A stretch of DNA of 20,937 nt. It comes from a virus. Lineage: Duplodnaviria; Heunggongvirae; Uroviricota; Caudoviricetes. A model generated the notes under the pieces. It was not told the origin of the DNA and searched no databases. It was given only the letters and a program-made list of their open reading frames with translations. Below are positions 7,236-19,663 of this stretch, in pieces. A program made the translations under genes and the position numbers. The stretch is from IMG/VR virus record IMGVR_UViG_2713896832_000003; one strand, given 5' to 3'. Each line of letters begins with the position of its first letter. Position 1 is the first letter of the stretch.

Positions 7236-8180
7236 TCACAACCAGCCGACGCTCTCTCGCCATTTATAATTAGTAACTTTATCATTTTCGCTTATTTTTT
7301 TAGATATAGAGCGCGGCTCTCTTCCTAGATACTCAGATATTTCTATCGGGGACAAATCAAAATCAACAAGCATGACTCTAAGTTTTTCCATTTCCTTTAA
7401 AGTCCAAGGCTTGCCATAATTTTCATAAAGAGATACCTTATGCTCCCTGATAGTTCGCTTTCTCTGAGTTTCACTTTCCCTCTGAAAAATCTCGCTTTTA
7501 AATTGTGAACGGAACTCTTTACAGAAGTTGTTATCAGTTTTTTTGTTATATAGATTGCTAAAAATAAGCTGGGATGCCGGGTCTAAATCAGGTGTGTTAA
7601 TAATGAAAACTTTGACCTTTTCCATATAGGGATATTCAATTTTACCCAATATGCTTAATTGCTTTATATTAAAAAAACCTCTCAAATCAAAAGATTTAAT
7701 GAGCTTTGATTGGATTACACTTTCAATCCTGCTTGCATTTAAATAACAGTACTTTGCCATTGGAAGGGCCCATACTACCAGTTGAGGAATATATTTTTCT
7801 AATGCAATGCTCTGCCAATCAGTATCAAAGGTTTGGCTTTTTGCTAGCATGTTTTTCGGCAAATCAGAATACATTGTGGTAGATGCCCATATCTTATAAT
7901 CATTCGCCAAGGCTTGATAGTATTTTGTGTGGTTATGAATTTTATAAGCTGACATGAAGCGATAAACGTCTTCGTCGTGACCAGCGTCGTAAATTGTTCG
8001 ATTTCCTCTAAGATAACCGTCGTAATGTTCGGTTATCCTTCTACCTACATTACAACTTACCCCAACGTAAACCACACGACTGAAAAGTCCTTTATGGACA
8101 ATAAGATAAACTCCGCTACAGCCAGATTTCCTGGCCTCTGATAGAGAACCTAAAAATCTCCATTCCATAATTAAATCCAT
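7236..8180 (-). CDS. GIY-YIG nuclease-domain protein with a C-terminal putative HTH region
   Basis: N-terminal SGVYLIVHKGLFSRVVYVGVSCNVGRRITEH fits the GIY...YIG...R...E pattern of GIY-YIG nucleases. The C-terminal ~60 aa (PWTLKEMEKLRVMLVDFDLSPIEISEYLGREPRSISKKIS) are HTH-like. AT-rich coding sequence. Confidence 0.7.
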   Translation of the reverse strand: MDLIMEWRFLGSLSEARKSGCSGVYLIVHKGLFSRVVYVGVSCNVGRRITEHYDGYLRGNRTIYDAGHDEDVYRFMSAYKIHNHTKYYQALANDYKIWASTTMYSDLPKNMLAKSQTFDTDWQSIALEKYIPQLVVWALPMAKYCYLNASRIESVIQSKLIKSFDLRGFFNIKQLSILGKIEYPYMEKVKVFIINTPDLDPASQLIFSNLYNKKTDNNFCKEFRSQFKSEIFQRESETQRKRTIREHKVSLYENYGKPWTLKEMEKLRVMLVDFDLSPIEISEYLGREPRSISKKISENDKVTNYKWRESVGWL

Positions 8181-8727: not shown

Positions 8728-10077
8728 TTATTCCGTTTTACATATCATAGTAGTCGATTGGAGAATATAGTTTCTGGGAATGTACTCTTCAAAGTGTTCG
8801 TCCTTTTTAAATACATGAACTACATTTGGGAATAATTGATAGTCAACAGGGTGTATAGCGTTTGGATTATGGTACATGTACATGGCTGTACACCATGGTT
8901 CTTGATAGTTAGGGTCACTTACATCGGCTGAAAATGGATGTGGGGCTGCATCCTGATCAGTTTTAACACCACTGACGTACACTTTGAATCCACTCGCCTC
9001 TACACCTGCAAGAATTCCCATCCGGTTAAACTTAGGTATGGTTGCTTGAGTAGTGAGTAAAACGGCAGAAACATAATTATTTTGTTCTGAGCCAAAAAAG
9101 TTCGACTTGATACTTCTATTTTCATCTGTATGTCTTTCAATAGAAATGCCTGACTCAATATCAATCCCGTACAAATAGCTATGCAAGGCTTCGCTTGAGA
9201 AGGCCATGGACATTCTTTTTGAATAATCCTGCATTGCTATGACAAATGGTTTGTTCTTTGTATGGTTGAGTTCCCAGTAATGAACTTTCTCTGGCTCAGG
9301 GCAATGCCGGACTTTTTTTAATAAACTTCTTGCAAACTTAAAAGGCATGACATTTAGAACATGTTTTCTTAATTCATCCATCTGTTCATCGTTAATGACT
9401 TTTCTTTCAAGAGGGGCTTCTGCTTCAGCAATGCTTACAGCCTCTACAGCAATTTCCACTCCAAATTTAGATAGCAGAAAATCTGGTTGATTGTATTCTC
9501 TATTCATTTCAAAGTCGAGTTCATAAAATACAGCGTTCAAATATAATTCAAATAACCTTGAATTAAATGCATCACTTTGAAAATCCCTTATAAATATTCC
9601 ATCAGGATCTTTGAACCAGTATGCAAGTTCCTCAAGAACAATATATGCAGGGAAATGAAGAGGGTCTTCGAGGAGCATTTTTATATAAACATTCCTTTTT
9701 TTCGCTGGGACCTTACTCAAGAATAATGAAAAAGGTTTGGTTGATTCATCGCCTTGCATGAATGTACCATTTTGGTGCTGCGCCAGCATCTTTGGTATGT
9801 CATCGTTCAAATTATTAAGCAAGACATCCATTGAATCAAATGAAGCCAAGACGTTTATTGCTCTGAATTTTTTATCTAAATCCCGACCTAAGACTATTGC
9901 GTTAAAATCTTTATCAATATTGCATATGATTATTGTGGATAACAATGTTATCCCATTCCCCTCATATTTAAACCAGCGTATCTCCTCAGAAAATGTCTTA
10001 AGGTAAGGTGAGCGACCGTAAAAATAAATATCAAATTGTTCTTTGCTGATCTCACTGAAGTGTAATCCTGCGTTCAT
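8728..10077 (-). CDS. hypothetical protein, 449 aa, no recognised domain
   Basis: Long AT-rich ORF with an AAAAGGAA RBS before the ATG, upstream of and co-oriented with the GIY-YIG gene. A hairpin-plus-T-rich terminator candidate lies on the minus strand around 8672-8700. Confidence 0.7.
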   Translation of the reverse strand: MNAGLHFSEISKEQFDIYFYGRSPYLKTFSEEIRWFKYEGNGITLLSTIIICNIDKDFNAIVLGRDLDKKFRAINVLASFDSMDVLLNNLNDDIPKMLAQHQNGTFMQGDESTKPFSLFLSKVPAKKRNVYIKMLLEDPLHFPAYIVLEELAYWFKDPDGIFIRDFQSDAFNSRLFELYLNAVFYELDFEMNREYNQPDFLLSKFGVEIAVEAVSIAEAEAPLERKVINDEQMDELRKHVLNVMPFKFARSLLKKVRHCPEPEKVHYWELNHTKNKPFVIAMQDYSKRMSMAFSSEALHSYLYGIDIESGISIERHTDENRSIKSNFFGSEQNNYVSAVLLTTQATIPKFNRMGILAGVEASGFKVYVSGVKTDQDAAPHPFSADVSDPNYQEPWCTAMYMYHNPNAIHPVDYQLFPNVVHVFKKDEHFEEYIPRNYILQSTTMICKTE

Positions 10078-10361: not shown

Positions 10362-10394
10362 ACTCAAATCTCCCACATTGCAGGAGATTTGAGT
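10362..10394 (+). promoter_or_regulatory. 12-bp perfect inverted repeat whose right arm covers the RBS of the recombinase gene
   Basis: ACTCAAATCTCC (10362-10373), 9-nt loop, GGAGATTTGAGT (10383-10394), ending 1 nt before ATG 10395. Would sequester the Shine-Dalgarno sequence in the mRNA. Confidence 0.4.
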
Positions 10395-10997
10395 ATGAAC
10401 ACGTCACCGTGGAACAAAGACCGTATCATAGGCCAAAAAAGACCACTTCAGATATCTCATATCTGGGGTATCCGAATCCGACTTGAACTGGAAGGTAAAA
10501 CTCGCGATTTAGCTCTGTTCAACATGGCCCTGGATAGTAAGCTTCGAGGCTGTGATCTGGTCAAACTCAAAGTATCTGATGTTGCATATGGTGGCTCTGT
10601 TTCAAGCAGAGCAACGGTGTTGCAACAGAAAACCGGTAGCCCTGTTCAATTTGAGATAACCAAAGGGACAAGAGAAGCTGTTGCTGCATTGATACAGCTT
10701 AGCAATTTGCACAGTAAAGACTTCTTGTTTCGGTCTAGGGTCGGAACTAACCAGCACATTTCAACCCGGCAATACAACCGAATCTTTCATGGGGGGGTAG
10801 AAAAGCTTGGTCTCGAAGATTCGCTTTACAGCACACATTCCATGAGAAGAACAAAACCTTACCTGATCTACAAGAAAACCAAGAATCTCCGGGTGATCCA
10901 ACTTCTGTTGGGTCATAAGAAACTGGAAAGCACAGTCCGTTATCTGGGCATTGAAGTCGATGATGCGTTAGAGATTTCTGAATCGATTGAAGTCTAA
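10395..10997 (+). CDS. FimB/FimE-like short tyrosine recombinase (catalytic domain only, ~200 aa)
   Basis: Contains the tyrosine-recombinase catalytic residues in order (LRGCDL; QQKTGSPVQ; HSMRRT; LLLGHKKLESTVRYL) but no N-terminal core-binding domain, the FimB/FimE architecture. The ORF track starts at TTG 10389; ATG 10395 with an AGGAG RBS is more likely. Confidence 0.8.
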   Translation: MNTSPWNKDRIIGQKRPLQISHIWGIRIRLELEGKTRDLALFNMALDSKLRGCDLVKLKVSDVAYGGSVSSRATVLQQKTGSPVQFEITKGTREAVAALIQLSNLHSKDFLFRSRVGTNQHISTRQYNRIFHGGVEKLGLEDSLYSTHSMRRTKPYLIYKKTKNLRVIQLLLGHKKLESTVRYLGIEVDDALEISESIEV

Positions 10998-11356: not shown

Positions 11357-12337
11357 ATGAAATTTAAGGACAAGAACCTTAAGGCTCTCGCGGAATGTAT
11401 CATAGGAGATAATAAGGCATTTCTGTATCGTTCAAGCAGTCACATCACTGAATTTTTCCAGGACTGCGGCATGGATGTTACTCATGACGGATCCACTCGG
11501 TGGAAATGGACGGCCCAGAGGCTTGAAGAACTTCTTTATGAGCCACAGTCAAAGCCACATACTTTGCCGGAAAGGTTTGTTCATGTGCTCAGAACTTTAA
11601 TGTTAAAAGAAGATGCAATGGATGACGATCCAGGAAGATTAAAGGCGCTTGAAGAACTGAACAAGCCTTTGATGCGGGAAGGCTATGAGGCATTCTATGG
11701 TGACGATCGCCTTTTGTATATACGCCATACCGATACCAAAACGGTTTCAGTCAGTAATAACCCTCATCGGCCCTTAACGCCTCACGAAGTAGAATGCAGA
11801 AGGTTACTGACCGCGTTTCTTGATACCTGCTCAGAAGATGAGTTAATAGAAGATATTCTCCTTCCTTTATTCCGGCAACTTGGTTTTCACCGGATAACAG
11901 CAGTGGGACATAAAGATAAAGCGCTGGAATACGGGAAAGACATCTGGATGAAGTTCACACTGCCAACTCAGCATGTTCTTTATTTCGGCATTCAGGCAAA
12001 AAAAGGTAAGTTGGATGCGTCCGGTGCCAGCAAATCTACGAATTCAAACGTGGCAGAAATCTTCAACCAGGTACTGATGATGCTTGGCCATGAAATATTT
12101 GACCCAGAAACAAATAGAAAGGTGCTGGTAGATCATGCCTTTATCGTTGCTGGCGGAGAAATTACTAAACAGGCGAGGAACTGGCTGGGCGGGAAACTTG
12201 ATGCCAGCAAAAGAAGCCAGATAATATTTATGGACCGGGAAGACATTCTTAATTTATATACTGTAAGTAATGTACCTCTGCCAACAGGTGCTCTCATCTC
12301 TGATGATGCCGTTAAGAACGATGATATTCCTTTCTAA
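11357..12337 (+). CDS. hypothetical protein with an Mrr-like (PD-(D/E)xK, D...QxK) nuclease motif in the C-terminal half
   Basis: Strong RBS GAGGGGGAG before the ATG. Motif ...EYGKDIWMKF...HVLYFGIQAKKGKL resembles the Asp...Gln-x-Lys catalytic signature of Mrr-type restriction endonuclease domains; the N-terminal ~160 aa are unassigned. Confidence 0.65.
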   Translation: MKFKDKNLKALAECIIGDNKAFLYRSSSHITEFFQDCGMDVTHDGSTRWKWTAQRLEELLYEPQSKPHTLPERFVHVLRTLMLKEDAMDDDPGRLKALEELNKPLMREGYEAFYGDDRLLYIRHTDTKTVSVSNNPHRPLTPHEVECRRLLTAFLDTCSEDELIEDILLPLFRQLGFHRITAVGHKDKALEYGKDIWMKFTLPTQHVLYFGIQAKKGKLDASGASKSTNSNVAEIFNQVLMMLGHEIFDPETNRKVLVDHAFIVAGGEITKQARNWLGGKLDASKRSQIIFMDREDILNLYTVSNVPLPTGALISDDAVKNDDIPF

Positions 12338-15096: not shown

Positions 15097-15471
15097 ATGC
15101 TCATAGATTTGGTTTTACCTTACCCGCCGACGGTGAACACTTACTGGCGACGCCGTGGCAGCACATATTTTATCTCGGAGGAGGGAAAGCGTTATCGCCG
15201 GGCTGTGGCGCTTATTGTTCGCCAGCAGCGGCTGAAATTAAGCCTGTCCGGAAGGCTGGCGATAAAGGTGATTGCAGAGCCACCGGATAAGCGTCGTCGC
15301 GACCTGGACAATATCCTGAAAGCACCGCTGGATGCGCTGACGCATGCGGGAGTGTTAATGGACGATGAGCAGTTTGATGAAATCAATATCGTTCGTGGTC
15401 AGCCAGTATCTGGTGGACGTCTGGGGGTGAAGATTTACCCCATAATGCATGAAGAGCAGGTCAAAAAATGA
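15097..15471 (+). CDS. rusA: RusA Holliday junction resolvase
   Basis: 124 aa with LPYPPTVNTYW ... RRDLDNILKAPLDALTHAGVLMDDEQF, the characteristic RusA motifs; AAGAGG RBS. Confidence 0.9.
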   Translation: MLIDLVLPYPPTVNTYWRRRGSTYFISEEGKRYRRAVALIVRQQRLKLSLSGRLAIKVIAEPPDKRRRDLDNILKAPLDALTHAGVLMDDEQFDEINIVRGQPVSGGRLGVKIYPIMHEEQVKK

Positions 15472-16289
15472 AACTGGAAGATTTACCGAAATACTACTCC
15501 CCAAAATCCCCTGGCCTGACCGATGCATCGGCCTCAACGTCAAAAGATGCGCTGAGTATCACTGATGTGATGGCCGCGCAGGGCATGACACAGAATCGGG
15601 CTGAGATGGGTTTTTCTGCGTTCCTGGGGAAAATGGGCATCAGTATGAATGACAGGGCGCGGGCAACAGAATTACTGGCAGATTATGCACTCAGTCGGTG
15701 CGATCGTGTGGCGGCGTTGAGAAAGCTTCCGGCAGAAATAAAACCGGTAGTGATGCGCATTATGGCTTCGTACGCTTTTGAGGATTATGCCCGCAGCGCA
15801 GCGAGTAAAAAGCAGTGCCCTTGTTGCTATGGGGAAAAATTTATTGAAAGCGTAGTTTTTACAAACAAGGTCCAGTATCCGGATGGTAAGCCGCCGGTAT
15901 GGGCAAAGTGTACGAAAGGTGTGTATCCGTCTTACTGGGAAGAATGGAAAAAAGTCAGGGAGGTGGTAAAAGTTGCCTGTCCGGAGTGTGGCGGAAAGGG
16001 TGAGGTTTCCACCGCCTGTAAGGATTGCCGTGGGCGTGGTGTCGCCATTCATCGTGAAGAGTCGGTAAAACGTGGTATGCCTGTTATCAGAGACTGCCAG
16101 CGTTGTGGTGGTCGTGGCTATGAAAGACTACCATCAACGGAGGCATTTAATGCTATATGCGAGGTGACAAACCAGATAACACGCGCGTCATGGGAAAAAA
16201 CAGTTAAGAAATTCTATGATGCGCTGGTGACCCGGTTTGATATTGAAGAAGCATGGGCTGAGCGGCAGTTAAAAAAGGTAACTAGGTAA
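15468..16289 (+). CDS. late-gene antitermination protein Q
   Basis: 273 aa with Cys-rich zinc-binding clusters (CPECGGKGE...CKDCRGRG...CQRCGGRG); ATGA overlap with the rusA stop; followed by a late-promoter-like sequence and terminator. Confidence 0.85.
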   Translation: MKLEDLPKYYSPKSPGLTDASASTSKDALSITDVMAAQGMTQNRAEMGFSAFLGKMGISMNDRARATELLADYALSRCDRVAALRKLPAEIKPVVMRIMASYAFEDYARSAASKKQCPCCYGEKFIESVVFTNKVQYPDGKPPVWAKCTKGVYPSYWEEWKKVREVVKVACPECGGKGEVSTACKDCRGRGVAIHREESVKRGMPVIRDCQRCGGRGYERLPSTEAFNAICEVTNQITRASWEKTVKKFYDALVTRFDIEEAWAERQLKKVTR

Positions 16290-16294
16290 CAAGG

Positions 16295-16322
16295 TTGATT
16301 TTTCCGGAATCTGTGGTAAATT
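16295..16322 (+). promoter_or_regulatory. PR'-like late promoter candidate (-35 TTGATT, 16-bp spacer, -10 TAAATT)
   Basis: Hexamers 5 nt downstream of the Q stop at lambda-like position; the Q-utilisation site would overlap. Confidence 0.4.
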
Positions 16323-16371
16323 CGTCATAACGATGGGCGTTTTATGCCTGACGTTAGAAGAGTTTCTACAA

Positions 16372-16393
16372 CCCGCCGCCGAGCGGGTTTTTT
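16372..16393 (+). terminator. tR'-like rho-independent terminator
   Basis: CCCGC-CGCCGA-GCGGG hairpin followed by TTTTTT, ~70 nt downstream of the candidate promoter. Confidence 0.55.
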
Positions 16394-16432
16394 ATTGCGG
16401 AATTAATTATGGACCGTTATTATTCTGCTCCC

Positions 16433-16508
16433 GGCCCTTTAGCTCAGTGGTGAGAGCGAGCGACTCATAATCGACAGGTCGCTGGGTCAAATCCAGCAAG
16501 GGCCACCA
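16433..16508 (+). tRNA. tRNA, anticodon CAU, Ile2 (ileX-like)
   Basis: 76 nt; 7-bp acceptor stem GGCCCTT/AAGGGCC, 4-bp D stem, anticodon loop CTCATAA, discriminator A and encoded CCA. Resembles E. coli tRNA-Ile2 as recalled, but has two mismatches in the anticodon stem and G at T-loop position 54. Confidence 0.7.
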
Positions 16509-16509
16509 A

Positions 16510-16586
16510 CCGTCACCAGTTCATCAGGAAAGAGCGTCAACCCTTTAAGTTGAGTGTGCGAGGTTCGAGTCCCCGGTGGCGGTCCA
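16510..16586 (+). tRNA. atypical tRNA-like gene, anticodon loop CCTTTAA (anticodon UUU if functional); possibly a pseudo-tRNA
   Basis: Folds as a cloverleaf with encoded CCA, but has C1-G72, C at position 8, C at position 33 and one T-stem mismatch. Confidence 0.4.
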
Positions 16587-16588
16587 GT

Positions 16589-16664
<76 letters not shown>

Positions 16665-16667
16665 TAT

Positions 16668-16742
<75 letters not shown>

Positions 16743-16748
16743 GTTAGA

Positions 16749-16794
16749 GTCTTTCAGTCTGCGATGATGGGAAATCCCGGAGTGACTGAAAGAC
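16749..16794. repeat. 11-bp perfect inverted repeat hairpin (GTCTTTCAGTC ... GACTGAAAGAC) immediately after the last tRNA
   Basis: Arms at 16749-16759 and 16784-16794 with a 24-nt loop containing GGGAAATCCC. Confidence 0.45.
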
Positions 16795-16801
16795 GTTTAA
16801 G

Positions 16802-16874
16802 TTATGAATGATCGCTTTTTTTTGCAAAATTGCTGTGCAGAAATACTAACCTTCGGGCAGGCGATCATTCATAA
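16802..16874. repeat. 14-bp perfect inverted repeat pair (TTATGAATGATCGC ... GCGATCATTCATAA) separated by 45 bp
   Basis: Arms at 16802-16815 and 16861-16874; the spacer begins with T8. Confidence 0.45.
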
Positions 16875-16948
16875 GCACTCTGCTTTTATTCCGATTAACT
16901 GTGGGTGGTTTGTTGGATAGAGTGCTTTCCTTACTGTATATATTGTTT

Positions 16949-16975
16949 CGCCCGCTTTTGCGGGCTTTTCTTTTC
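16949..16975 (+). terminator. rho-independent terminator candidate upstream of the J fragment
   Basis: GCCCGC-TTTT-GCGGGC hairpin followed by TTTTCTTTTC. Confidence 0.5.
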
Positions 16976-17034
16976 AAATCCCTTTCATTTCTCAGTGTAA
17001 AACTACGCCATCCGTTATTTGCGGAGGTGAGGCT

Positions 17035-19197
17035 ATGAAATCCATGGACAAAATTTCAACGGGCATTGCCTATGGCACCTCCGCAGGCAGTGCTGGCTAC
17101 TGGTTTTTACAGCTGCTCGATAAAGTCACGCCCTCACAGTGGGCAGCAATAGGTGTGCTGGGTATCCGCACCGGCGGGCGCGTGCTGGCGGTAAACAGCC
17201 AGACCCGGACGCTGACGCTCGACCGTGAAATCACGCTGCCATCTTCCGGCACCACGCTGATAAGCCTGGTTGACGGGCAGGGGAGTCCGGTCAGCGTGGA
17301 GGTTCAGTCCGTCACCGACGGCGTGAAGGTGAAAGTGAGCCGTGTTCCTGACGGCGTTGCTGAATACAGCGTATGGGGGCTGAAGCTGCCGACGCTGCGC
17401 CAGCGCCTGTTCCGCTGCGTGAGTATCCGTGAGAACGACGACGGCACGTATGCCATCACCGCCGTGCAGCATGTACCGGAAAAAGAGGCCATCGTGGATA
17501 ACGGGGCGCACTTTGACGGCGACCAGAGCGGCACGGTAAATGGTGTCACGCCGCCAGCGGTGCAGCACCTGACCGCAGAAGTCACCGCAGACAGCGGGGA
17601 ATACCAGGTGCTGGCCCGCTGGGACACGCCGAAGGTGGTGAAGGGCGTGAGCTTCCTGCTTCGCCTGACCGTGGCAGCGGATGACGGCCGTGAGCGGCTG
17701 GTCAGCACGGCCCGGACGACGGAAACCACTTACCGCTTCACACAACTGGCTCTGGGGAACTACAGGCTGACAGTCCGGGCAGTAAATGCGCGGGGGCAGC
17801 AGGGCGATCCGGCGTCGGTATCGTTCCGGATTGCCGCACCGGCAGCGCCGTCGCGGATTGAGCTGACGCCGGGCTATTTTCAGATAACCGCCACGCCGCA
17901 TCTTGCGGTTTATGACCCGACGGTACAGTTTGAGTTCTGGTTCTCGGAAAAACGGATTGCGGATATCAGGCAGGTTGAAACCAGCGCGCGTTATCTTGGT
18001 ACGGCACTGTACTGGATAGCCGCCAGTATCAATATCAAACCGGGCCATGATTATTATTTTTACGTTCGCAGTGTGAACACCGTTGGCAAATCGGCATTCG
18101 TGGAGGCTGTCGGTCAGCCGAGTGATGATGCATCAGGCTATCTGGATTTTTTCAAAGGCGAGATAGGGAAAACCCATCTGGCTCAGGAGCTGTGGACGCA
18201 GATTGATAACGGTCAGCTTGCGCCTGACCTGACTGAAATCAGGACGTCCATAACGGATGTCAGCAATGAAATAACACAGACCGTCAATAAGAAACTGGAA
18301 GACCAGAGTGCAGCGATCCAGCAGATACAGAAGGTTCAGGTTGATACAAATAATAACCTGAACAGCATGTGGGCAGTGAAGCTGCAGCAGATGCAGGACG
18401 GACGCCTTTATATTGCGGGTATCGGTGCCGGTATTGAGAACACCCCTGACGGCATGCAGAGTCAGGTGCTGCTGGCAGCAGACAGGATTGCGATGATTAA
18501 TCCTGCGAATGGCAACACAAAGCCGATGTTTGTTGGTCAGGGCGATCAGATATTCATGAATGAAGTGTTCCTGAAACGCCTGACGGCCCCCACCATTACC
18601 AGCGGCGGTAATCCTCCGGCATTTTCCCTGACATCAGACGGGAGACTGACGGCGAAAAATGCGGATATCAGTGGCAGTGTGAATGCGAACTCAGGAACGC
18701 TCAACAATGTCACGATTAACCAGAACTGTACGATTAAGGGCATGCTGGAGGCGACCCAGGTCAGAGGAGATTTCGTTAAAGCTGTATCAAAAGCCTTCCC
18801 GAAAAAAGTCGGTACGTGGGGTAACACGGAAACACCAAACGGTACGGTTACAGTAACCATCAGCGATGATCATAACTTTGACCGCCAGATTATTATTCCG
18901 CCCATTATTTTTAACGGTATAGCGTATGACGATCCGGGGAGCGGAAATAACCCAGGAGGCACGCGATACACGGGTTATGGTTTTGAAGTTCGCAAAAACG
19001 GCGTATTAATCGCATCCAGAGAAACTAAAGGGGCCATTCCCGGTAGTTACAGTGCAGTTATTGATATGCCGAGTGGCAGGGGAAGCGTCACTCTGGAGTT
19101 TAAGATTTTCCAGAAAGGCAATCAGGGGGCAGGCAATATCACCGACTGTACGGTGATTGTGACCAAAAAAGCGGCTTCCGGCATCAGTATTCGTTGA
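17035..19197 (+). CDS. host-specificity (tail tip) protein J, C-terminal ~720 codons only
   Basis: Extensive match to the recalled distal part of lambda J (...[36 protein letters not shown]...; ...[26 protein letters not shown]...). ATG 17035 has a GGAGGTGA RBS; the upstream in-frame sequence is not J-like and runs through a terminator hairpin. Full-length J is ~1130 aa. Confidence 0.85.
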
Positions 19198-19267
19198 AAT
19201 ATTTATAACCCCAATAAAGGGCGTCAGGAATGACGCCTTTTTTATTGCAGAAAAGCGAGAGGTAATT

Positions 19268-19663
19268 ATGCGTAAAGTTTGTGCAGCAATTTTGTCCGCA
19301 GCCATTTGTCTGGCCGTATCCGGTGCGCCTGCATGGGCGTCTGAACATCAGTCCACGCTGAGCGCGGGGTATCTTCATGCCCGGACCAACGTTCCCGGCA
19401 GTGATGATCTGAACGGGATTAACGTGAAATATCGTTATGAGTTTACGGATACGCTGGGGCTGGTGACGTCATTCAGCTATGCAGGAGACAAGAATCGCCA
19501 GCTGACCCGTTACAGCGATACCCGCTGGCATGAAGATTCCGTGCGTAACCGCTGGTTCAGCGTGATGGCGGGGCCGTCTGTGCGCGTGAATGAATGGTTC
19601 AGCGCGTATGCGATGGTACTGGTGGAAGAACTATCGAGCAAGCACGTGCGAACTTGCGGGTAA
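19268..19663 (+). pseudogene. lom: lom (Ail/Lom outer-membrane protein), 3'-truncated at about codon 118
   Basis: N-terminal 118 residues match recalled lambda Lom (signal peptide ...AAICLAVSGAPAWASEHQSTLSAGYLHA...NEWFSAYAM), then diverge into 13 unrelated codons and a stop. Lom is ~206 aa. Confidence 0.75.

Follow-up and report, generated by a model that had tools for sequence, protein, structure and literature searches.

Cryptic lambdoid prophages of Escherichia coli such as Qin (Kim), DLP12 and Rac are remnants whose morphogenesis genes have gone by way of internal deletions. Qin of strain K-12 occupies the chromosomal site between rspB and a truncated ydfJ, carries the markers dicB, ydfD, hokD, rem, a DUF968/ydfU-like gene, a rusA-like gene and Q, and presumably retains the lysis-region genes essQ-ydfR-rzpQ. 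The lysis protein closest to the one discussed here is the S21 pinholin of phage 21, which has an MKSM dual start and a first transmembrane segment followed by a second that is reportedly the pore-forming helix. Tip attachment protein J of lambda joins an N-terminal tail-tip body to Ig-like, tail-tip fibre and receptor-binding domains, and is encoded alongside partner tail genes. In the stretch between Q/pR' and the lysis genes of related elements, structured RNAs closed by an intrinsic terminator have been described, namely STnc100 (Rfam RF02076), IsrK/IsrJ and StxS from pR'. Stable RNAs linked to tRNAs include 3'ETS-leuZ of E. coli and the 'species 1/2' RNAs from the end of the T4 tRNA cluster.

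The locus described here was analysed within a stretch of 20,937 nucleotides from a caudoviricete record (IMGVR_UViG_2713896832_000003), hereafter the window. A first-pass annotation had drawn attention to positions 16743-17037, where the Q-tRNA block seemed to be joined directly to the middle of J across a spacer rich in inverted repeats.

The Prophage and Its Late Region

The window belongs to a Qin-like cryptic E. coli prophage of the lambdoid type and represents its late region. The wider context was read from the RefSeq annotation of the identical locus in strain UK_Dog_Liverpool, in which rspB flanks the prophage on one side and a truncated ydfJ on the other, as at the Qin locus (rspB / ydfJ'). 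The gene order given by RefSeq/PGAP is int-xis-recE-ydfD-dicB ... hokD-rem-DUF968-rusA-Q-tRNAs-S'-'J-lom'-'stf-'tfa, so that the insertion site, the dicB/ydfD/hokD/rem/Q-type genes and the loss of morphogenesis genes are all those of a Qin-like element; no lysis or morphogenesis genes are annotated across the entire prophage. The element was found in E. coli 042 and related strains. It differs from Qin in its deletion endpoints (S codon 43 to mid-J, and lom' to 'stf) and in the presence of a tRNA array and of a PD-T7-1 defence gene, and its S gene is reduced to 43 codons, in contrast to the essQ-ydfR-rzpQ segment that we take K-12 Qin to retain. The features that precede the spacer are as follows.

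15468-16289, + strand: late antiterminator gene Q, intact, 273 aa, Qin/QuuQ-like (Pfam PF03589 Antiterm, E = 6e-55)
16290-16432, + strand: putative late promoter region, directly 3' of Q
16370-16389, + strand: first intrinsic terminator, tR'-like, from a terminator scan (AACCCGCCGCCGAGCGGGTT then TTTTATT)
16433-16742, + strand: phage tRNA array of four genes called by ARAGORN, Met/Ile2(CAT), an odd 'Lys(TTT)' slot, Thr(TGT) and Gly(TCC)

Q, named 'antitermination protein' in RefSeq, and the tRNA array thus sit immediately 5' of the spacer, as had been noted. The segment 16290-16432 is presumed to be pR'/tR' from its placement just after Q. Only three of the tRNAs are backed by Rfam and PGAP, the slot at 16510-16586 being called by neither.

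The Deletion Junction and the Chimeric Reading Frame

Downstream of the spacer, a single reading frame runs through parts of two genes, and a further scar lies beyond it.

17023-17030, + strand: native Shine-Dalgarno sequence of holin gene S, GGAGGTGA, identical in phages PhiR47_1 and 689R5
17035-17162, + strand: 5' fragment (codons 1-43) of a P21-type class II holin (pinholin) gene S (Pfam PF04971)
17161-17162: deletion junction, a 2-nt GG microhomology of S (nt 127-128 of 216) and J, from a three-way alignment
17161-19197, + strand: 3' ~60% of the tail-tip/host-specificity gene J (Pfam Ig_J, Ig_J_second, Phage_Tail_Tip and Ig_GpJ_C)
17035-19197, + strand: in-frame S'-'J chimeric open reading frame, 720 aa
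19268-19616, + strand: 5' fragment of lom (Pfam Ail_Lom) fused to a side-tail-fibre gene remnant (C-terminal part)

The junction was aligned base by base against the intact S genes of 689R5 and PhiR47_1 and the intact J of 569R4, and the breakpoint was found 127 nt into the open reading frame rather than in the spacer. In BLAST searches against phages the S-side match ends at 17162 and the J-side match begins at 17161, with no phage record covering 80% or more of the query. In PhiR47_1 the homologous points are separated by 18,666 bp, and in the APEC E12053 prophage by ~18,658 bp. The first-pass annotation was right that lysis and morphogenesis genes are missing between the Q/tRNA block and distal J (~20 kb by its estimate for a lambdoid late operon; ~18.7 kb here, with packaging, head and tail genes included), but its placement of the join is not borne out: alignment to intact lambdoid phages put the breakpoint at 17161-17162, outside the spacer, and codons 1-43 of S intervene between the Q-tRNA block and J.

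The first 43 codons of the frame are those of a holin. PF04971 matches residues 5-43 at profile positions 1-39 of 64 (E = 1.4e-17), and the nucleotide identity to intact S genes is 95.6-97.7%, ending at 17162, that is, at nt 128 of 216. The product begins MKSMDK... with the MKSM dual-start motif, the same as in PhiR47_1 and 689R5, where GGAGGTGA stands ahead of a full-length S; the native dual start and Shine-Dalgarno sequence of a P21-type holin are thus both present. The fragment shares with the S21 pinholin the dual start and the first transmembrane segment but is cut within the second transmembrane domain (after WAAIGVLG), and falls short of the ~64-71 aa and two transmembrane domains of a full-length holin. 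PGAP labels it 'phage holin, missing C-terminus', and it cannot be a functional holin. The ribosome-binding site had been judged well placed before the ATG at 17035, and it is, at the head of a 720-codon frame; the ATG, however, opens S and not the J fragment.

On the other side of the junction, J homology starts at codon ~486 of 1131 (PhiR47_1 numbering). Four J families were detected above their Pfam cut-offs in residues 165-719 (E = 2e-25 to 3e-42), and the fragment retains the C-terminal module of lambda-type J: two Ig-like domains, the tail-tip fibre domain and the C-terminal receptor-binding domain. Unlike lambda J, it lacks the N-terminal ~485 residues (the tail-tip body) and has no partner tail genes (M, L, K and I) upstream. 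PGAP labels it 'missing N-terminus'. The J-lom segment is 99.2% identical to phage 569R4 without gaps, and the J protein is 99.7% identical to that of the same phage.

A second join, lom'-'stf, lies at ~19615/19616, where homology to both 569R4 and PhiR47_1 stops (at 19616) and where only positions 1-119 of the 199 in the Ail_Lom profile are matched. PGAP gives partial pseudogenes on either side of it, and this scar is further decay of the same prophage.

The simplest reading of the main junction is a single-step deletion. One illegitimate-recombination event of ~18.7 kb, probably mediated by the 2-nt GG microhomology, would have taken out the 3' 40% of S and the 5' ~43% of J together with all that lay between them, namely ydfR, R, Rz and the genes for terminase, portal, head and tail; the stumps of S and J would have met in frame by chance, and the ribosome-binding site and dual-start ATG (17035) native to S would now lead a 720-codon S(1-43)::J fusion with the C-terminal ~678 aa of J. 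The junction was found in 111 of 5,426 complete E. coli genomes, the best-scoring 30 of the junction records found being 100% identical, and its presence in 111 independent complete genomes makes an assembly artefact unlikely. No genome with an undeleted ancestor at the rspB/ydfJ locus was identified. RefSeq already annotates both halves as partial pseudogenes.

The Spacer and Its Predicted Structured RNA

All the sequence features that had been listed for the spacer (hairpin, inverted repeat, terminator, ribosome-binding site and ATG) were found where they had been placed. The spacer is made up as follows.

16743-16935, + strand: conserved predicted structured RNA trailing the tRNA array, from fold z-score, base-pair changes and fixed position
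16749-16794, + strand: H1, hairpin of the structured RNA and an optional module, with 11-bp perfect arms (16749-16759/16784-16794)
16802-16874, + strand: H2, core hairpin of the structured RNA, holding the 14-bp perfect inverted repeat (16802-16815/16861-16874, 45 nt between arms)
16877-16923, + strand: H3, core hairpin of the structured RNA
16950-16965, + strand: intrinsic terminator ending the structured RNA, 5' of S (GCCCGCTTTTGCGGGC then TTTTCTTTT)

The spacer (16743-17034) is 98-100% identical in the intact phages PhiR47_1, 689R5, 606R7 and phi467 and in an APEC prophage, in all of which it is followed by a complete holin (S)-YdfR-lysozyme (R)-Rz cassette and then by terminase through J. 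In PhiR47_1 and 689R5, the two intact phages that were aligned, no difference from the window was seen in any hairpin, in the terminator, in the ribosome-binding site or in the ATG. The 98-100% identity in intact phages marks all these features, the 14-bp repeat included, as native. By its sequence, the 292-bp spacer is the normal late-operon leader after the phage tRNA array and is uninvolved in the deletion.

The repeats are not chance features. When a 358-nt stretch was folded, a z value of -5.9 was obtained and none of 100 shuffles folded equally well, so that the inverted repeats and hairpins exceed chance expectation. Across 49 distinct sequences, pairing was kept in 98.2% of cells, and 14 of 57 pairs showed changes on both sides, compared with at most 5 in the slid controls. 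The H2+H3 core was retested on a second, independently anchored sequence set, in which 97.0% of cells were paired (40-49% when slid) and nine pairs were changed on both sides. Over the two sets, slid partners gave 39-49% pairing, and the base-pair changes are mostly traceable to a small number of deep clade splits. Many G-U pairs are invariant and would be A-C if read on the opposite strand, which suggests that the spacer is made as RNA from the + strand. The position of the element is likewise conserved: of the ~90 viral contigs that were inspected, most have its start 0-1 nt past tRNA-Gly, and a terminator-like hairpin follows H3 by 12-26 nt in 42 of 61 distinct homologous flanks, of at least four unrelated sequence types. 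Among the species representatives of the genome collection, those of E. coli and Shigella flexneri alone matched the strict H1 pattern. In the window the element is intact from 16743 to ~16970, within a cryptic prophage.

Several identities were considered for this RNA. All 4,227 Rfam families, including STnc100, IsrK/IsrJ and tRNA-like families, gave no match at E <= 1 over 16743-16935, nor over the element in five homologous loci, and a known RNA family was thus rejected; STnc100 matches occur directly 3' of the homologous element, in HK639-type loci only. A small open reading frame in H1 (ATGATGGGAAAT...) was discarded on alignment, since the clades differ by a 1-nt indel that changes the reading frame and displaces the stop. 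The asymmetric loop of H1 (5' GAUGA / 3' GA), which we take to fit the k-turn consensus, is not put forward as a kink-turn: its columns are fixed by the retrieval pattern itself, and a variant that was retrieved independently alters the key G and the C-stem pair. The put-type antiterminator RNAs of HK022/HK639 are located in early operons, and nothing of relevance came up in a literature search on HK639. Finally, the convergent prophage sRNAs reported by Tree et al. 2014 (PMC4104026) map to the moron site and to the opposite strand, whereas the G-U pattern of the spacer favours the + strand.

In its placement between Q/pR' and the lysis genes and in its closure by an intrinsic terminator, the element is comparable to STnc100, IsrK/IsrJ and StxS; it differs from them in having no sequence or structure match to these families and in being tied physically to the 3' end of a tRNA array. 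In the latter respect it resembles 3'ETS-leuZ and the T4 'species 1/2' RNAs, in which structured RNA abuts the last tRNA of a cluster and is releasable by tRNA 3' processing; the likeness is a positional analogy, and release and stability are putative for the spacer RNA. By the pairing statistics, then, the spacer is a conserved predicted + strand structured RNA of two to three hairpins outside the Rfam families, which is the one new result of this analysis, and a candidate for an undescribed late-leader or tRNA-trailer RNA. It is possible, although we would put this at somewhat below even chances, that it represents an undescribed phage ncRNA family, with an H2/H3 core, an optional H1 and a terminator, fused to the 3' end of the tRNA array in the Q-dependent late leader and freed by tRNA 3' processing as a stable RNA of ~200-230 nt with its own function. 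Such an RNA may act, for example, as an sRNA or sponge, as a protein binder, or as a processing or stability element of the lysis mRNA.

Alternative Explanations

It is very probable that the locus is a Qin-like prophage with an ~18.7-kb deletion, an S'-'J chimera at the join and a native leader as spacer. The explanation first proposed, a breakpoint inside 16743-17034 with the inverted repeats as a recombination scar or as the ends of a MITE-like insertion, takes its appeal from perfect 11-bp and 14-bp repeats that are real and non-random. It is hardly credible, given that the homology switches outside the spacer and that the spacer with both repeats accompanies a full lysis and morphogenesis region in the intact phages. 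Moreover, compensatory substitutions in the arms are those expected for an RNA stem, the element is fixed in position after tRNA-Gly, and it occupies a median of one place per genome (530 E. coli genomes) and was never found on E. coli plasmids. A search for other copies of the 14-bp repeat had been suggested; within the window the 14-mer occurs only as its two arms, and the dispersed copies, variable context and presence/absence polymorphism of a MITE are not properties of the spacer element. The idea of a short J-family gene that begins naturally at 17035 may be practically discounted: nothing except the good ribosome-binding site and ATG recommends it, while Pfam and a 96-98% nucleotide identity to S genes both identify residues 1-43 as holin S, no phage record spans both halves at 80% coverage or more, and both are flagged incomplete by PGAP. 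The position is a natural gene start, as that idea supposes, but of a holin, and the lysis and morphogenesis genes that should then exist elsewhere in the same prophage are not annotated there. A better case, although still an unlikely one, can be made for illegitimate or short-homology recombination of two prophages, one giving Q-tRNA-S and the other J-lom. The S side is nearest to the PhiR47_1/APEC type (96-98%), whose J genes are only 90-93% identical, and the J-lom side is nearly identical to a different phage, 569R4; nevertheless, lambdoid genomes are mosaic, so that one ancestor with such an S and such a J is entirely plausible, and S and J are arranged and oriented as in one colinear late operon. 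The identity of the locus is unaffected either way.

The chimera itself was weighed as a gene and as a relic. Its frame is open throughout all 720 codons, and 490 contigs encode exactly this product, under the GenBank names 'host specificity protein J' or 'hypothetical protein'. A domesticated, functional S'-'J gene, in which the first holin transmembrane domain would serve as membrane anchor or signal for the J receptor-binding fragment (for example in superinfection exclusion via receptor masking, or as a tailocin-like accessory), would explain both the open frame and the widespread allele, and the in-frame fusion, intact ribosome-binding site, intact upstream Q and complete J C-terminal domains accord with it. 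We nevertheless consider it improbable. An in-frame join has a prior of one in three, the spread of the identical product fits clonal inheritance (the best 30 junction records being alike), the adjacent lom and stf are truncated too, which argues for general decay, and two intrinsic terminators stand between the late promoter region and the frame. At 99.2% identity, the J fragment is too near to the J of a live phage for selection after the deletion to be detected, and therefore neither selection nor decay is readable from it. We infer that the chimera is a non-functional relic, which would be transcribed only if a Q-modified RNA polymerase passes the terminators at 16370-16389 and 16950-16965.

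Implications

The deletion is of little weight in its own right, being another documented and ordinary case of cryptic-prophage decay. It does carry two cautions for the annotation of such elements: a good ribosome-binding site and ATG before a truncated domain can come from a different, decapitated gene, and striking hairpins beside a deletion need not have caused it. Of modest value are the in-frame fusion of the first pinholin transmembrane domain to the J receptor-binding region, which is fixed in an E. coli lineage of clinical relevance (042 and relatives), and the unannotated, covarying candidate RNA joined to phage tRNA arrays, which adds to the small set of late-leader RNAs that comprises STnc100, IsrK and StxS.

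Breakpoint of the Deletion

The 720-codon open reading frame that begins at ATG 17035 was found to encode a holin-type protein over its first 43 residues and J from there on. Residues 5–43 matched the Pfam family 'Bacteriophage P21 holin S' (PF04971; profile positions 1–39 of 64 only; E = 1.4e-17), and residues 165–719 carried the four J modules Ig_J, Ig_J_second, Phage_Tail_Tip and Ig_GpJ_C. When 16290–17500 was compared by megablast with 50,697 phage records, no record spanned both halves; phages annotated 'holin protein S' matched up to window position 17162, and a separate set annotated 'host specificity protein J' matched from 17161. The breakpoint was mapped against intact lambdoid phages, as the first-pass annotation had suggested. 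Base-by-base three-way alignments with the intact S of phages 689R5 and PhiR47_1 and the intact J of phage 569R4 placed the switch at the dinucleotide GG 17161–17162, the sole sequence common to both parents at the join. By the coordinates of PhiR47_1, the S part runs to nt 128 of 216, the J part sets in at nt ~1458 of 3396 (codon ~486 of 1131), and the homologous points lie 18,666 bp apart in that phage and ~18,658 bp apart in the prophage of APEC E12053; the deletion is thus real, with a size near the one first guessed. The Q–tRNA block had been described as joined to the middle of J in the spacer 16743–17034; the loss was borne out, at ~18.7 kb, but the junction lies inside the reading frame. 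The deletion begins within the holin gene, 127 nt downstream of its ATG. ATG 17035 and its ribosome-binding site, previously assigned to a J fragment, are those of S and are unchanged in PhiR47_1 and 689R5.

Sequence Features and Origin of the Spacer

Every feature that had been listed for this region (11-bp arms, 14-bp arms, terminator-like hairpin, ribosome-binding site and ATG) was found in the window.

Features of the spacer and its surroundings
15468–16289, + strand: intact antiterminator gene Q (Pfam Antiterm)
16433–16742, + strand: tRNA array, upstream of the spacer
16749–16759 and 16784–16794: perfect 11-bp arms, as first described
16802–16815 and 16861–16874: perfect 14-bp arms, 45 nt between them
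16950–16965, + strand: GC-rich hairpin, then a T-run (intrinsic terminator, terminator scan)
17023–17030, + strand: ribosome-binding site GGAGGTGA
17035 (ATG)–19197, + strand: 720-codon open reading frame

The fold of 16743–17100 gave z = −5.9 against dinucleotide shuffles, and the listed hairpins exceed chance. A perfect 10-bp stem (17020–17029/17076–17085) pairs the S Shine–Dalgarno sequence (TGCGGAGGTG) with S codons 14–17; resembling the sdi structure of lambda S in concept, it may exert translational control of the holin's dual start, and a different local hairpin was favoured over it in the minimum-free-energy fold. Within the array, ARAGORN called a tRNA-Lys(TTT) at 16510–16586, where the Rfam tRNA model and PGAP both called nothing. 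In related phages the same slot was called Lys, Arg, Phe, Leu, '???' or 'Stop'; this tRNA-like position is either degenerate or changing fast.

The complete genome of PhiR47_1 has the order tRNA-Met/Lys/Thr/Gly, a 291-bp gap, holin S, YdfR, lysozyme R, Rz and terminase, continuing to J. The spacer aligned with PhiR47_1 and 689R5 at 99% identity, with both inverted repeats, terminator, ribosome-binding site and ATG unchanged; sensitive BLAST found it in full in four phages (98–99% identity) and as a partial copy (77%) between Q and the holins of phage HK639. Among 5,426 complete E. coli genomes, it was present in 530, with a median of one copy and on no plasmid, and the S–J junction was present in only 111. 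APEC E12053, which lies outside the 111, carries a 100% identical spacer followed by the full lysis and morphogenesis region. A search of the window for further copies of the 14-bp repeat returned only the two arms, and the hairpin unit gave one weak match among 72,556 plasmids. Since the spacer is native to intact phages and an intact prophage, present at a median of one copy per genome and not dispersed, the proposals that its inverted repeats mark a deletion or recombination scar, or the ends of a mobile insertion, were rejected. Of the original interpretation the deletion therefore survives, without the placement of the junction or the meaning given to the repeats.

Identity and Decay of the Prophage

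An identical locus, annotated by PGAP in RefSeq, was found in strain UK_Dog_Liverpool.

Gene order at the UK_Dog_Liverpool locus
Left flank: rspA-rspB
Prophage: int, xis, exonuclease (recE-like), ydfD, dicB, ..., hokD, rem, DUF968, rusA, Q, tRNAs
After the tRNAs: 'phage holin (missing C-terminus)', 'phage tail tip domain protein (missing N-terminus)', 'Ail/Lom (missing C-terminus)'
Distal end: 'S74 peptidase tail fibre (missing N-terminus)', 'tail fibre assembly (missing N-terminus)'
Right flank: ydfJ (missing N-terminus), ydfI

By position and gene set, this is a Qin-type cryptic prophage; its PGAP annotation lists genes of neither lysis nor morphogenesis and shows two or more additional internal truncations. 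Two of the annotated pseudogenes map to window 17035–17163 and 17161–19197, so that the breakpoint was already annotated, and the joining of Q and tRNAs to mid-J is ordinary cryptic-prophage decay at the Qin locus. The J–lom block (17161–19616) is 99.2% identical to phage 569R4 without gaps, and homology stops at 19616. A second internal deletion scar lies there (region 19268–19616 and on to the window end): lom is cut after ~116 codons (Pfam Ail_Lom profile positions 1–119 of 199) and runs straight into the C-terminal portion of a side-tail-fibre gene (S74 peptidase). In public assemblies, 490 contigs encode exactly this 720-aa product, under the GenBank names 'host specificity protein J' or 'hypothetical protein'. 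The best 30 junction-bearing records listed were 100% identical across the junction, which fits clonal inheritance in a lineage including EAEC 042. In the viral contig L116 (IMGVR_UViG_2537561935_000023), the same truncated holin was seen (match ending at nt ~128), with Q and RusA 100% identical; evidently the cryptic prophage itself has been binned as an IMG/VR viral genome.

A 449-aa reading frame (8728–10077, − strand) strongly matched the anti-phage system PD-T7-1 (PADLOC PDLC04073, E = 7e-157) and occupies the expected place of the immunity/replication region. Its neighbours lie at 7236–8180 (−), 10389–10997 (+) and 11357–12337 (+); two (314 and 326 aa) had no Pfam match, and the third is a short 202-aa integrase-family frame. 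The region looks like a defence or cargo island within the cryptic prophage.

The S–J join has 2 nt of microhomology, is in frame and keeps the S translation signals; the holin has lost its second half, cut within TMD2 after WAAIGVLG, and J its N-terminal ~485 residues. A single illegitimate, microhomology-mediated deletion inside one late operon probably produced this arrangement. Recombination between two different prophages is possible, since the closest S-side and J-side relatives are different phages, but was judged unlikely against such an internal deletion, and would leave the nature of the locus unaltered. The chimera would be an inert relic, and for it to be transcribed, Q-modified polymerase would have to get past two terminators (16370–16389 and 16950–16965). 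That the chimera is functional was considered very improbable, an in-frame join being expected one time in three; it keeps this small probability because its J portion is so close to live-phage J that neither selection nor decay would show.

A Predicted Conserved RNA Downstream of the tRNA Array

A 15-mer of hairpin 1 served to retrieve spacer homologues from IMG/VR, and BLAST filtering of these gave 48 distinct sequences of several clades (75–100% identity). RNAalifold predicted three hairpins, H1 (16749–16794), H2 (16802–16874) and H3 (16877–16923), of which H2 is a three-way element with the 14-bp inverted repeat as its outer stem. Standard pairs filled 98.2% of cells, compared with 39–45% when partners were slid by 1–3 columns; both sides had changed in 14/57 pairs (1–5 in slid controls), and the covariation score was 0.219 (0.05–0.08 slid). 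Numerous G-U pairs show no variation and would become A-C on the other strand, so that the RNA is predicted to come from the + strand, in the sense of the tRNAs and late operon. As this retrieval had fixed part of H1, a second scan was anchored on the H2 and H3 loops. It recovered H2–H3 straight after the tRNA-Gly CCA end without H1, in other upstream contexts and with divergent H1, and the core is therefore H2 plus H3. For this core in the combined set, 97.0% of cells were paired (40–49% slid) and 9 pairs had changed on both sides, a count non-significant against shuffles (349/500); the majority of compensatory substitutions go back to a small number of deep splits between clades.

H1 has an asymmetric internal loop (16761–16783; 5' GAUGA/3' GA) between a G-U/C-G stem and a U-G/G-C stem, which fits the kink-turn consensus; however, the retrieval pattern had fixed these columns, and the key positions are not preserved in L139, an H1 variant that was retrieved independently.

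In most of ~90 viral contigs the element begins 0–1 nt past the final tRNA of the array, and it lies at variable distance upstream of at least three kinds of lysis cassette. Of 61 distinct flanks, 42 have a terminator-like hairpin that starts 12–26 nt past H3; the others mostly have weakened forms of the same terminator, and at least four unrelated terminator sequences are in use. At E ≤ 1, no Rfam family hit the element, either in the window itself or at any of five homologous loci. The known sRNA family STnc100 (RF02076) was absent from the window in the Rfam search; in HK639-type phages it scored 52–53 bits (gathering score 47) just downstream of the element's terminator, in the late leaders of HK639 (L006, 2754–2959) and the loci L136 (317–514) and L053 (340–546). 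A near-threshold IsrJ-like match lay directly after Q in HK639. The late leaders of lambdoid phages seem to be built as series of RNA modules, each bounded by a terminator. The predicted spacer RNA is analogous to STnc100, IsrK and StxS, as well as to the tRNA-trailer RNAs 3'ETS-leuZ and T4 species 1/2, by position only.

In our reading of these alignments, the spacer would be a late-leader RNA of modular build, attached to the tRNA array, and possibly, rather than probably, represents a genuine, undescribed functional RNA family. This conserved candidate tRNA-trailer RNA is the sole potentially new item at the locus and, if genuine, would be of moderate interest for phage-RNA specialists.
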